Source: Bdellovibrionales bacterium
Lineage (GTDB): Bacteria; Bdellovibrionota; FAC87; UBA2466
Direction: 5' to 3'
Assembly (NCBI GenBank): GCA_009692515.1
Contig: SHZA01000005.1
Coordinates: 2,517-66,516, forward strand
DNA: 64,000 bases
Shown: piece after piece, positions 59,279 through 62,427 of the stretch
Layout of the letters: every line of letters begins with the position of its first letter
How positions within the stretch are numbered: position 1 is the first letter of the stretch
Notes under the pieces: generated by a model
Told to the model about the DNA's origin: nothing
Database searches by the model: none
The model's input: only the letters and a program-made list of their open reading frames with translations
Made by a program: the position numbers and the translations under genes

Positions 59279-59572
59279 TTAATCTAAAAGATGCGAAGGC
59301 TTCTCAACCTTAAATTTTTCTAAAAGGGTGAAGAGGCCTTCCTCATTTTCAGCGACCACTTCAATACAGGAGCAAATCCAAACCCAAGCGGTTCCCACCT
59401 TTTTTGTACTAAATTGATAGACCGCAGAACGTGAGGGAGTATACACCACCTCGATGGCACGACGATAACCATCACCTGGTTTTTCTAGCTGGATATCTAA
59501 GTTAGAAACCTCTCGACGAATATCTGTAAGATTTTCTGTATTTTGTCGCCGTATAATATAACGCATCGCCAT
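59279..59572 (-). CDS. hypothetical protein
   Basis: The 97-aa ORF has no recognisable motif. It is divergent from the RRM gene. Confidence 0.35.
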   Translation of the reverse strand: MAMRYIIRRQNTENLTDIRREVSNLDIQLEKPGDGYRRAIEVVYTPSRSAVYQFSTKKVGTAWVWICSCIEVVAENEEGLFTLLEKFKVEKPSHLLD

Positions 59573-59897
59573 AGGTATTTGATATCCTTCTCTAGTTTTA
59601 AGCTAACTATCTATTAACCAGAACCTTTTTTATACTCAACTAGTGCCAAAATGACAAAGAAAGATTTAGCTCCATTTTTTGTGAGGCATGCTTGATTGAG
59701 GCAGATTCCCGTGAGATAGTATAAGGGTATGTGTATGAGTATGTGTTATCTAATTTCCAACCGTGAAAAGGCGAACCGACAACTTCAAGGAATTACCAGT
59801 GTCCTTCCTTAAGAAACTCCAGATGCTTGCCCGAAATTGTAAAAAATGTAGGCTTGATATCCGCTTTTTTTCCTAATTATGAATAGAGAGGAATCCC

Positions 59898-60905
59898 GTG
59901 TCCAAAAAACTATATGTAGGTAATTTAAGTTACGAAGTTACCGAAGAAGAACTATCTCAATTATTCGGCCAGTGTGGCCAAGTGGTTGAAGCGCGTATTA
60001 TCAAAGATAAATTTTCAGGTCGCTCCAAAGGATTTGGATTTATAGAGATGCCCAATGACGATGAGGCCACTCATGCGATCGATCGCATGAGAGGTTATGA
60101 CCTTAAGGGTAGGCCCTTAATGGTGGATGAAGCCAATGAACGCCCTGAAGGGGGTAGCAACGGGGATCGCGGAGGTTATGAAGGCGGAGATCGTGGGGGC
60201 CGTGGCGGTGGAAATAGAGGTGGCCGTGGCGGCGGAGATCGCGGCGGTCAAGCTAGAGGTTATGGCGGCGGCGGAGATCGCGGCGGCCAAGGTGGAGGTT
60301 ATGGCGGCGGCGGAGATCGCGGCGGCCAAGGTAGAGGTTATGGTGGCGGCGGAGATCGCGGCGGCCAAGGTGGAGGTTATGGCGGCGGCGGAGATCGCGG
60401 CGGCCAAGGTGGAGGTTATGGCGGCGGCGGAGATCGCGGCGGCCAAGGTAGAGGTTATGGCGGCGGCGGAGATCGCGGCGGCCAAGGTGGAGGTTATGGC
60501 GGCGGTGGAGATCGCGGCGGCCAAGGTAGAGGTTATGGCGGCGGTGGAGATCGTGGCGGCCAAGGCGGAGGTTATGGCGGCGGTGGAGATCGCGGCGGTC
60601 AAGGCGGAGGTTATGGCGGAGGTTATGGCGGAGGCGGAGATCGTGGCGGCCAAGGCGGAGGTTATGGTGGCGGCGGCGGAGATCGCGGCGGCCAAGGTAG
60701 AGGTTATGGCGGTGGCGGAGATCGCGGTGGCCAAGGCGGAGGTTATGGCGGCGGTGGAGATCGTGGCGGTCGTAGTGGGAGTGATCCCGGTGGCCGTAGT
60801 GGCGGCGATCGAAATCGTAGCGACCGAGAGGATCGAGGCAATGACGGGAATCGCGGTCGTGGAGGCAGTGGTGGCGACCATGATGATGAAGGTGGCAACT
60901 ACTAA
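59898..60905 (+). CDS. RRM-domain RNA-binding protein with a ~250-aa Gly/Arg/Tyr-rich repeat tail
   Basis: The ORF starts with GTG after an AGAGAGG RBS. It has RNP-2 (LYVGNL) and RNP-1 (KGFGFIEM) followed by about 13 tandem 13-aa units (GGDRGGQG[G/R]GYGG). Confidence 0.85.
   Translation: MSKKLYVGNLSYEVTEEELSQLFGQCGQVVEARIIKDKFSGRSKGFGFIEMPNDDEATHAIDRMRGYDLKGRPLMVDEANERPEGGSNGDRGGYEGGDRGGRGGGNRGGRGGGDRGGQARGYGGGGDRGGQGGGYGGGGDRGGQGRGYGGGGDRGGQGGGYGGGGDRGGQGGGYGGGGDRGGQGRGYGGGGDRGGQGGGYGGGGDRGGQGRGYGGGGDRGGQGGGYGGGGDRGGQGGGYGGGYGGGGDRGGQGGGYGGGGGDRGGQGRGYGGGGDRGGQGGGYGGGGDRGGRSGSDPGGRSGGDRNRSDREDRGNDGNRGRGGSGGDHDDEGGNY
60228..60776 (+). repeat. 39-bp near-perfect tandem repeat array, coding (about 13-14 units)
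   Basis: The unit ggcggcggagatcgcggcggccaaggt[g/a]gaggttat repeats head-to-tail with only occasional single-base changes. Confidence 0.85.
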
Positions 60906-60936
60906 GCTCGCATAAAAAAATAAAAACAGTTTAAAA

Positions 60937-60965
60937 AACCCGGAGCTCTGAGCGAGTTCCGGGTT
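60937..60965. terminator. bidirectional intrinsic terminator between convergent genes
   Basis: The stem AACCCGGA/TCCGGGTT has a 13-nt loop. It is followed by a T-run on the plus strand and preceded by an A-run, which forms the minus-strand T-run. Confidence 0.6.
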
Positions 60966-60975
60966 TTTTATTTTT

Positions 60976-61758
60976 CTAGCGTTTATGAATGAGCGCTAAA
61001 ATAATTTCAAAGAAGATTAGAAACACTACAGAGGCCTCAAGAATCGCAGTTCTTCTGTTTGAGGTAAAGTCGGCCAAAATTTCAATATTATCTTGAATCA
61101 AACTTAACTTTCTATCTAGCGTTCGAAAGCGAATTTCAATATCAAAGTTAGCCTGAAGCTCTTTAAAGATCTCCTCTAATTCTTTGCTTTTCCATGTTTC
61201 ATCTGGCGGGTCTAAAATCGCCACATTGCTAATAATATGCTGACGAGCACTCGCAGAGGTTCCAATTAGTTTTAAAAGGCTTTTTGTTTTTAAAGAGACG
61301 GCGCCAAAGGAGGCGAGAGTTTGCATAAAAGCAGATGCTTCATTTAGCATTCGATCGGCCAGTGCTTCAAAGTATTCTAATGCGGCAGATTGCCCCACTG
61401 AAATAGCAATGAGTCGCAAGAGATCAAGCGAAAGTTCTTTTACCTCTACATATTCAAAGGCAACTCTATTTGGAAAATCACCCACATTAATTTGATAAGT
61501 TTCAGTAGTAGGATTCGGTAATCCGTTTCCCAGAACCATTTTTATCTTATTCATTTCAATTTCGACCTGTTCATTCGACATATTAAAAAAAACAAGACAG
61601 CCGAAACGATAAATAAATAAATAGGTATTTTCCCCGTATTGAAGTCTTAATTCCTGTGGAGAACTATCAACTACACGACCCGAAAGCACCGAACGAATAC
61701 TTTTAATGTGAATCGAATCGTATAAGTTAATGGCCTGCATGAGATAGCCACTTGCCAT
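60976..61758 (-). CDS. DUF155/RMD1(YagE)-like protein with C-terminal TM helix
   Basis: The 260-aa ORF has architecture and sequence features resembling the DUF155 family, but the assignment is tentative. Confidence 0.45.
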   Translation of the reverse strand: MASGYLMQAINLYDSIHIKSIRSVLSGRVVDSSPQELRLQYGENTYLFIYRFGCLVFFNMSNEQVEIEMNKIKMVLGNGLPNPTTETYQINVGDFPNRVAFEYVEVKELSLDLLRLIAISVGQSAALEYFEALADRMLNEASAFMQTLASFGAVSLKTKSLLKLIGTSASARQHIISNVAILDPPDETWKSKELEEIFKELQANFDIEIRFRTLDRKLSLIQDNIEILADFTSNRRTAILEASVVFLIFFEIILALIHKR

Positions 61759-61815: not shown

Positions 61816-62427
61816 ATGATTACACGCATGAACCAAACAATCATGACTCTCTGCATTTTGTTGGCTTCGACAATTTCGGTGCGAAGTGAAGCCCATTTTC
61901 TCGAGGTGTTTGCCAAGGCCTCAGCCTCAAAAAACTTTATCGATAAGGACAGCTATTCGATAAGTGTTTCTGGTGCAACTGGCTTAGCTATTTTACTGAT
62001 TCCACAAATAAGAATTGAGGGACGTTATACCGTAGTGAGTAGTTTGCAAAATCAACTCAATGTCGGCAGTCCTTCAGTGATCGCAACTCTGAATGATATT
62101 AAAACAGAAACTAATATTTATAGTGTGGGTCTAGACATCGATCTTTTAAGTGATAAATATGCCATTCAACCTTTTGTATTTTTGGGAGCGGGTTATGTGG
62201 AATCACTTCGGTCCTATTTTGTAACACTCGCCGGAAACAGTTCGGCAACTTTAATTAATGAACCCAAAACAATGGGAATTTCTGCAAATATTGGCGCGGG
62301 AATTAGAATTCGTATTGCTAAATCGGTTGCCTTTGAGGCCGAAGTTTATGGTTACGGGATTGATCCGCAAAAACCGGATCCTTTAATCAACCTGTATGGG
62401 AATGTGGGCATTCGCATTTTCATGTAG
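61816..62427 (+). CDS. small outer membrane beta-barrel protein (OmpW/OmpA-like)
   Basis: The 203-aa ORF has a signal peptide, an amphipathic beta-strand pattern and an aromatic C-terminus. Confidence 0.5.
   Translation: MITRMNQTIMTLCILLASTISVRSEAHFLEVFAKASASKNFIDKDSYSISVSGATGLAILLIPQIRIEGRYTVVSSLQNQLNVGSPSVIATLNDIKTETNIYSVGLDIDLLSDKYAIQPFVFLGAGYVESLRSYFVTLAGNSSATLINEPKTMGISANIGAGIRIRIAKSVAFEAEVYGYGIDPQKPDPLINLYGNVGIRIFM

Follow-up and report, generated by a model that had tools for sequence, protein, structure and literature searches.

We find that a gene in a 64,000-nt stretch of a Bdellovibrionales contig (SHZA01000005.1; hereafter the window) encodes a bacterial RNA-binding protein whose glycine-rich tail is an extreme outlier in length. 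The coding sequence (CDS) lies at 59898..60905 on the + strand, is complete with a GTG start, and yields a protein of 335 aa plus stop in which one RNA-recognition motif (RRM) is followed by a long tail containing 13 tandem copies of a 39-bp unit. We consider it probable that this is an Rbp-type protein in which the 39-bp unit was amplified to 13 copies, extending the tail from ~100 aa to 253 aa, and that the product acts as a multivalent chaperone or regulator with an autoinhibitory tip. The protein is an extreme form of a known protein kind and is not categorically new.

The RRM occupies aa 1-82 (59898..60143, +), as delimited by its Pfam match and by an AlphaFold2 (AF2) model. Pfam RRM_1 (PF00076) matches aa 5-74 (E=3.9e-24, 84.8 bits against a cutoff of 20.7) and is the sole Pfam match in the protein. 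The open reading frame (ORF) at 59898-60905 and its one canonical RRM, with the RNP-2 motif LYVGNL (aa 5-10, 59910-59927) and the RNP-1 motif KGFGFIEM (aa 44-51, 60027-60050), were found exactly as an earlier annotation made from the letters alone (the sequence-only reading) had claimed. The RNP-1 motif occurs once in the window, and the RNA-contact aromatic residues Y6, F46, and F48 are retained. AF2 was uninformative from a single sequence even for the RRM; the model used here was built with a 50-sequence alignment and has predicted local distance difference test (pLDDT) scores of 93-96 over residues 1-80, with the beta1-alpha1-beta2-beta3-alpha2-beta4 topology of an RRM (strands at 3-8, 31-36, 43-51, and 75-78; helices at 16-24 and 54-64). 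Foldseek returned 852 PDB matches at E<=0.001, and the best 50 of these 852 are almost all RRM domains. The top match is the bacterial RNA-binding protein PG1 (7JLY; 49% identity, TM score 0.92), followed by the RRMs of RBM39, CIRBP/hnRNP A18, Fox-1, TIA-1, HuR, and tobacco GR-RBP1. The nearest NCBIfam model is NF058537 Rbp_regulator ('RNA-binding regulator', an equivalog domain), which matches aa 5-82 at 96.3 bits (E=9.8e-28); as the curated cutoff is 100, we call the protein related to this family and not a member of it. The protein belongs to the RRM_1 superfamily and to the bacterial glycine-rich single-RRM Rbp group, having one RRM followed directly by a Gly-rich C-terminus and lying in a bacterial genome.

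The tail comprises aa 83-335, 253 aa or 3.1x the length of the RRM. It opens with a degenerate segment (aa 83-112, 60144..60233, +; PEGGSNGDRGGYEGGDRGGRGGGNRGGRGG), continues through the 13-unit tandem array (aa 113-286, 60234..60755, +; 39-bp units with the consensus GDRGGQG(G/R)GYGGG), and leads, by our parse of the protein, through a non-repetitive Arg/Asp/Ser/Asn-rich segment (aa 287-326, 60756..60875, +) to an acidic tip. The parse and the measured length bear out the earlier estimates of about 13 near-identical 13-residue units and of a tail of ~250 aa, about three times the RRM. Tandem Repeats Finder reports a period of 39 bp with 13.5 copies at 60228-60769 (87% matches, score 781). Eleven of the 13 units are exactly 13 aa long, one has 17 aa (an extra YGGG), and one has 14 aa (an extra G), with degenerate units bordering the array at aa 89-112 and aa 287-299. 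Among the 11 canonical units, nucleotide identity averages 93.7% (range 84.6-100%), so that some units are identical, and at the protein level only G/R at unit position 8 (GGA/AGA) recurs as a change. Pairwise codon differences between these units are synonymous in 94 cases and nonsynonymous in 40, and the indels between units are multiples of 3.

The composition of the tail is strongly biased, with 58.5% G, 12.6% R, 9.5% D, 6.3% Y, and 5.1% Q (D+E 11.1%), a single aliphatic residue in 253, and no Cys. It contains 20 RGG, 16 DRGG, and 14 YGG motifs, with 32 Arg and 16 Tyr in all and a Tyr spacing of 13 residues. Because 19 of the 32 Arg are preceded by Asp, the net charge is only +4 (net charge per residue +0.016). 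In the AF2 model, residues 86-335 have pLDDT <50 and no secondary structure was assigned in the tail; in the disorder check that the sequence-only reading had proposed, the whole 253-aa tail is thus predicted to be disordered. By its sequence, the tail follows the 'sticker-and-spacer' plan familiar from FET proteins, with Arg and evenly spaced Tyr set in a Gly matrix.

The tail ends in the acidic tip DHDDEGGNY (aa 327-335, 60876..60902, +), which is conserved in orthologs. The same type of tip is found as YDDEGSGNY in P0009, YDDDGGGNY in the L081 protein, GDDGGGNY in P0005, and RRDDNDGNY in L083/P0298, and it recurs in a sub-clade of relatives (P0005, P0276, P0280, P0295, P0298, P0306, P0307, and P0380). 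In P0009 and the L081 protein, too, the tip follows a comparable RD-rich segment. More broadly, 74% of 151 complete bacterial single-RRM proteins have an aromatic C-terminal residue (Y, W, or F), the commonest endings being R-Y (53), R-W (23), and R-F (11); the sub-clade that includes the window protein ends instead in an acidic stretch followed by G-N-Y. That the last residue is conserved as aromatic while the disordered tail before it varies suggests a specific contact made by the C-terminus, as far as can be judged from these sequences.

We placed the tail length in context with a survey of 151 complete RRM proteins out of 163 fetched bacterial loci. Tail-only protein searches were useless for prevalence, since composition correction suppresses low-complexity matches, and full-length searches were topped by eukaryotic multi-RRM proteins through summed domain scores and said little about bacterial tail lengths. 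The BLASTP-type check suggested by the sequence-only reading was therefore only partly informative: at full length it was swamped by these eukaryotic proteins, and with the tail alone it gave two matches, including the truncated and near-identical P0272. Both were replaced by a clade-specific RRM profile, with loci taken from genome and metagenome contigs. The 151 complete relatives have a median length of 105 aa, a 95th percentile of 140 aa, and a maximum of 195 aa, and the 118 closest clade members in the protein database have 63-146 aa. In any search, the longest other single-RRM proteins of bacterial type reach only 190-228 aa (Comamonas P0059/P0098, with tails of ~125 aa; Acidobacteriota P0077; P0031; P0065), and the claim that the tail is exceptional in length stands.

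The baseline that the sequence-only reading had used, bacterial RRM tails of only 10-30 aa, is too low. Clade tails are mostly 10-60 aa, those of orthologs range over 10-110 aa, and the positional orthologs described below carry 100-113 aa. Cyanobacterial Rbp C-terminal regions span 0 to ~130 aa, including a 116-aa region with 66 Gly in Prochlorococcus MIT9313 Rbp_2 (PMC9333190). The 253-aa tail is thus ~2x the longest documented one (~130 aa) and exceeds all others that we found on bacterial proteins of this type, at the extreme of a continuum and not a new architecture. Longer 'PF00076-only' metagenomic matches (P0038, P0103, P0104, P0066, P0099, and others) were rejected as long-tailed bacterial proteins, being eukaryotic-type proteins with two or three RRMs. 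We observed that four of them (P0066, P0099, P0038, and P0103) are protist-type two-RRM proteins with (GGDRGGY)n or (YDDRGG)n tails close to the window unit. From such sequences, RRM proteins of different lineages appear to have gained the DRGG-YGG grammar repeatedly.

Bacterial tails of this kind are probably under-counted or annotated as 'partial'. Short-read assemblies break inside them, leading to systematic under-sampling of long tails: 9 of 160 scanned loci reach the end of their contig within the Gly tail, that of L002 is interrupted by an N gap, and the genes of L161 and L001 are cut short. Contig breaks or N gaps inside tails were seen in L161 (2985-3415), L001 (4001-4290), L002, L010, L049, L055, L082, L101, L133, L139, and L140.

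Relatives of the gene came from a search of genome and metagenome contigs with an RRM alignment specific to its clade, and those recovered are labeled Deltaproteobacteria, Bdellovibrionaceae, Pseudobdellovibrionaceae, or Oligoflexia. Three of the loci share the gene order Rieske/PLP/cyclophilin/97-aa ORF/RRM/DUF155/203-aa ORF/MgsA with the window (PLP, a Cys/Met pyridoxal phosphate enzyme). These are L081, on a 187-kb JGI contig (RRM identity 91%, flanks at ~70-74% nucleotide identity); L162/L163, which encode the 195-aa P0009 ('MAG: RNA-binding protein [Deltaproteobacteria bacterium]', MAG being a metagenome-assembled genome); and L161 (GCA_013205415.1, contig JABMMY010000329.1), with 93% nucleotide identity over 3.4 kb. 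We take the RRM genes of these loci, on gene order and sequence, to be positional orthologs of the window gene, with RRM identities of 82-100%. A further locus, L001, aligns with the window at 72% nucleotide identity over ~3.8 kb in all, from upstream sequence into the gene, and ends inside the gene.

The tails of the orthologs differ from that of the window protein in both length and repeat. The L081 protein (182 aa) and P0009 (195 aa) have tails of 100-113 aa whose unit is GGGGRRFGGGG, with or without RD, using Phe instead of Tyr and no Gln. P0272, the L161 product annotated as 'partial', is identical to the window protein through the RRM and opens with the same GDRGG...QGRGYGG tail before its contig ends inside the array; it is the only ortholog with the GDRGGQGxGYGGG unit. 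Because the other orthologs carry ~100-aa tails of a different repeat, we read the window tail from these sequences as a lineage-specific tandem expansion in an otherwise conserved gene, common to at least one 93%-identical relative.

A long open frame is weak evidence in such sequence, as GC content rises from ~0.40 to 0.69 across the array and three of six frames are open through it. The intact reading frame that the sequence-only reading had cited among the signs of a real gene does not suffice alone; the RRM frame is validated because it is continuous with the RRM and with the C-terminal tip kept in orthologs. Two other ORFs overlap the gene, at 60127-60915 (+) and 60117-60881 (-); we dismissed both as genes, since they read through the repeat and have no homologs. 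These off-frame ORFs, of 262 aa and 254 aa with Ala/Val/Glu- or Ala/Thr/Ser-rich translations, are artefacts of GC-rich periodic sequence and could mislead automatic gene callers. At the start of the RRM frame, the N-terminus M-x-KKLYVGNL lines up with orthologs that begin with ATG, and a Shine-Dalgarno-like AGAGAGGA (59885..59892, +) lies 6 nt before the GTG, with its AGAGG core kept in the ortholog alignment. An intrinsic-terminator hairpin (60932..60970; 17 pairs of which 7 are GC, loop of 5, upstream A-run, T-tail downstream) lies between the convergent RRM and DUF155 genes, the latter ending at 60976. That the gene is real, as had been claimed, follows from the conservation of synteny, promoter, leader, and C-terminal tip in relatives. 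On these sequence grounds we take the gene to be genuine and chromosomal, carried by an uncultured bacterium related to the Bdellovibrionota, from a lineage that bears the label 'Deltaproteobacteria bacterium' in public MAGs.

Upstream of the gene, an alignment of the window with L161, L081, L001, and L162 shows that the region 59645-59897 is clearly more conserved than the coding flanks (70-73% identical). It contains a putative sigma-70 promoter (59692..59720, +) with a -35 element TTGATT at 59692-59697, a 17-nt spacer, and an extended -10 element TG-n-GATAGT at 59712-59720. The consensus promoter scan did not report this promoter (8/12 matches, under threshold), and we infer it from its conservation: it is kept as CTTGAT(T/C)G ... 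TGGGATACT in the four relatives, with the -10 variant TG-n-GATA(G/C)T. About 25 nt upstream of the -35 lies a nearly invariant box, GCCAAAATGACAAAGAAAGATTT (59645..59667, +), with the consensus G(A/C)CAAA(A/T)TGACAAAGAAAGATTT across the window and four relatives; judged from this pattern, it could be an UP element or operator.

The promoter is followed by a conserved 5′ leader of ~170 nt (59727..59897, +) with almost invariant blocks across the five genomes, and an nhmmer profile of the leader matched in syntenic relatives only. Rfam searches of the window and leader, at gathering and permissive thresholds, gave nothing beyond a chance STnc410 match (E=1.7), and a tRNA search of the window found none. 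A three-helix model of the leader from RNAalifold was rejected, having one compensatory pair and a covariation term of 0. Conserved boxes are known in the 5′ untranslated regions (UTRs) of cold-regulated cyanobacterial rbp genes (PMC9333190), and the Bacteroides RRM-1 proteins are cold-shock-like and autoregulated (PMC13370968). By analogy with these two cases, the leader may be a clade-specific autoregulatory or cold-responsive UTR.

What might such a protein do? By analogy with known systems, the protein most likely serves as an RNA chaperone or regulator, with a multivalent tail that would favor association with itself and with RNA. The RRM would bind single-stranded RNA through Y6, F46, and F48, as the presence of the motifs suggests. 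The near-neutral tail, with its 32 Arg and 16 evenly placed Tyr on Gly spacers, may add many weak and non-specific contacts both to RNA and to itself (Arg-Tyr and Arg-phosphate), a role drawn from its composition and from what is known of FET proteins and RGG domains. Such contacts could confer chaperone or annealing activity on RNA and make the protein strongly prone to self-association or to condensation with RNA. Hfq of E. coli and A. baumannii has acidic C-tips, and by this analogy the conserved acidic ...DDEGGNY tip might compete against RNA for binding to the Arg-rich tail or to the surface of the RRM, thereby autoinhibiting or recycling the protein. Expression would be driven by the conserved promoter through the ~170-nt leader, where autoregulation or control by cold could plausibly act. 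Cyanobacterial Rbp1 is required for growth in the cold (PMC9333190).

Several observations weigh against a functional role of this kind. Deletion of the short Gly-rich tail of Synechocystis Rbp1 had no effect on cold growth, so Gly tails can be dispensable (PMC9333190). The tails of the orthologs turn over rapidly in unit and length, as neutral slippage would give. The Asp-Arg pairing and net charge of ~0 could make RNA binding weaker than that of cationic RGG boxes. The leader folds no better than shuffled sequences (single-sequence z-score 0.66), leaving its structure without statistical support, and the copy number of the array is that of the assembly.

The dispensable Rbp1 tail also favors the view that the protein is an ordinary glycine-rich Rbp in which tail length is a near-neutral by-product of slippage or unequal recombination (a coding variable number tandem repeat); it would then function as its relatives of 100-195 aa do, with the extra repeats adding nothing specific. 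Units and lengths do vary freely among close orthologs (GGGGRRFGGGG in L081 and P0009; 10-60-aa tails), and the 94% identity between units speaks for recent amplification. However, every unit indel is frame-preserving and the conserved tip is kept after 170 aa of repeats, while most codon differences between units are synonymous, a single patterned G/R position being the exception. The same type of tail in the 93%-identical relative means that it has persisted across some divergence, and in A. baumannii Hfq the number of Gly repeats affects function (PMC11617691). We therefore find neutral expansion possible but doubtful, and continue to prefer an amplified, functional Rbp tail.

A further concern is that the gene is real and that its repeat count, and hence the 253-aa length, reflects an expanded or mis-joined array in the assembly. 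Public short-read MAGs break at the tail, as described above for L161, L001, the N gap of L002, and 9 of 160 loci, and the exact window protein has no entry in a collection of 15 billion proteins. The array is nevertheless in frame from the RRM to the conserved tip and lies 59.9 kb into a contiguous 64-kb window with unique sequence on both sides. It also shows a consistent pattern of variants (GGA/AGA alternation, GGC/GGT, one 51-bp unit, and one 42-bp unit), unlike the usual collapse or duplication errors. An artefact of this kind is improbable.

A more ambitious interpretation of the same sequence features is that the protein is a convergent bacterial counterpart of TAF15/FET proteins that forms RNA-dependent condensates, with copy number as an evolvable dial of saturation concentration and the tip as a solubiliser or autoinhibitor. 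We hold this tentatively and think it unlikely. The combination of an RRM with RGG/YGG grammar dominates eukaryotic ribonucleoprotein (RNP) granules, and we know of no bacterial condensate scaffold with it among the handful on which the field now relies, which include RNase E, DEAD-box helicases, SSB, PopZ, and Dps. With a single domain and 13 near-identical units, the window gene is a minimal natural test case and a candidate for tests of bacterial RNA-protein condensation, in which close orthologs with shorter or different tails are built-in controls. To our knowledge, bacteria lack the protein arginine methyltransferase (PRMT) system that regulates eukaryotic RGG domains. The gene would let the effects of repeat number, Asp-Arg pairing, and the acidic tip on RNA chaperoning and condensation be studied without eukaryotic modification such as arginine methylation.

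The genes flanking the RRM gene are typically bacterial. In the window, it is preceded in order by genes for a PP2C phosphatase, a Rieske protein, the Cys/Met PLP enzyme, a cyclophilin, and a 97-aa ORF on the opposite strand, and it is followed by DUF155 (opposite strand), a 203-aa ORF, and MgsA (opposite strand). The 97-aa ORF (59279-59572, -; MAMRYIIRRQN...EKPSHLLD) is divergent from the RRM gene, has no Pfam or NCBIfam match, and recurs at this position in L081, L161, and L162/L163, where its C-terminus is unchanged. The 203-aa ORF (61816-62427, +) has conserved counterparts in L081 and L163, shares 8 bp with the end of the convergent MgsA gene, and gave no family match in domain searches; its signal-peptide-like N-terminus, alternating beta-strand-like sequence, and end ...GIRIFM suggest a small outer-membrane beta-barrel.

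The nearby gene for MgsA, a replication-associated ATPase, could be taken to favor a role in DNA metabolism, in which the protein would be an SSB-like single-stranded DNA-binding factor that recruits partner proteins through its disordered linker and acidic tip. Bacterial SSB has a nucleic-acid-binding fold, a Gly-rich linker, and an acidic aromatic-ended tip, an architecture that the window protein parallels, and a Helicobacter RRM protein was deposited as 'Ss-DNA binding protein 12RNP2' (2ki2). However, the MgsA gene is two genes off on the opposite strand without an operon link, characterised bacterial RRM relatives act on RNA, and the nearest NCBIfam model is an 'RNA-binding regulator'. 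We regard an SSB-like role as very improbable.

The published sequence closest to the tail is the longest glycine/arginine-rich (GAR) motif of human TAF15 (motif 4, GGDRGGGYGGDRGGGYGG...), which has 82 aa with 58.5% Gly, 14.6% Arg, 11 Asp, and 10 Tyr (PMC9957100). The two share the Asp-Arg-Gly-Gly ... Tyr-Gly-Gly grammar, a position C-terminal to an RRM, similar acidic content, a net charge near zero, and the same Gly content, with 12.6% Arg in the window tail. They differ in size and period: the TAF15 motif repeats every 7-8 aa over 82 aa, whereas the window array covers ~174 aa with a period of 13 aa and an added Gln, and the whole tail is 3x longer. The resemblance to eukaryotic RGG/YGG domains noted in the sequence-only reading thus holds, with the DRGG-YGG repeats of TAF15 as the nearest case. 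Its label 'FUS/hnRNP-like' holds as a description of likeness, not of family membership. The multiple RGG motifs typical of FET proteins are present, a resemblance only, and the RRM falls in a bacterial clade. We found no N-terminal SYGQ-rich prion-like domain, as the RRM begins at residue 2-5, and neither a RanBP2 zinc finger nor a PY nuclear localization signal (PY-NLS), RRM_1 being the sole Pfam match and the tail having no Cys and ending in DDEGGNY, which does not fit the pattern R/H/K-x(2-5)-PY. Because the RRM is of bacterial lineage, we read the protein as outside the FET family and its TAF15-like tail, on sequence, as a convergence.

The same comparison bears on whether a eukaryotic FET/hnRNP/GRP-type gene was acquired horizontally or entered the assembly as contamination. 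The tail composition matches TAF15, metagenomes contain protist two-RRM proteins with GGDRGGYGG tails (P0066), and eukaryotic multi-RRM proteins top the full-length searches; these last owe their rank solely to the added scores of several RRMs. By contrast, the nearest relatives with a single domain (82-91% identity) are bacterial and have gene order, promoter, and leader in common with the window. The genes on either side are typical of bacteria, the SYGQ domain and zinc finger are absent, and the tails of the orthologs differ, which means that the repeat originated in place. Present data put the protein in a Bdellovibrionota-like clade, and we regard horizontal transfer from eukaryotes, and likewise contamination, as effectively excluded.

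Other proteins share the architecture to different degrees. The plant and animal class IV glycine-rich RNA-binding proteins (AtGRP7, NtGR-RBP1, CIRBP, and RBM3) also join an RRM to a Gly/Arg/Tyr tail and have chaperone or cold-response roles, and the RRMs of NtGR-RBP1 and CIRBP are among the top structural matches of the window RRM. However, these proteins are eukaryotic with irregular tails of ~60-90 aa, whereas the window RRM clusters with bacterial sequences. In A. baumannii, Hfq carries a long C-terminal domain of GGFGGQ repeats with an acidic tip, in which the full repeat number is needed for fitness and both repeat number and tip affect RNA binding, autoregulation, and fitness (PMC11617691); acidic C-tips of Hfq compete with RNA and autoinhibit or autoregulate the chaperone (PMC5606850). 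Like the window protein, A. baumannii Hfq combines an RNA-binding fold, an intrinsically disordered region of tandem Gly/aromatic/Gln repeats, and an acidic tip, but its fold is a hexameric Sm fold and not a monomeric RRM, and its repeats are shorter and lack Arg and Asp. The nearest systems are the bacterial Rbp proteins (cyanobacterial type I Rbp such as Synechocystis Rbp1 and Anabaena RbpA; Bacteroides RbpA/B/C; and P. gingivalis PG1, 7JLY), which share with the window protein an N-terminal RRM of ~80 aa, a Gly-rich disordered C-terminus directly after it, and an aromatic last residue. The cold-regulated cyanobacterial rbp genes and the window gene both have a conserved 5′ leader. The window protein departs from this group in that its tail is a near-perfect 13-fold repeat with Asp, Gln, and Tyr instead of an irregular G/R/Y stretch, and in that it ends in an acidic GNY tip instead of R-Y or R-W.

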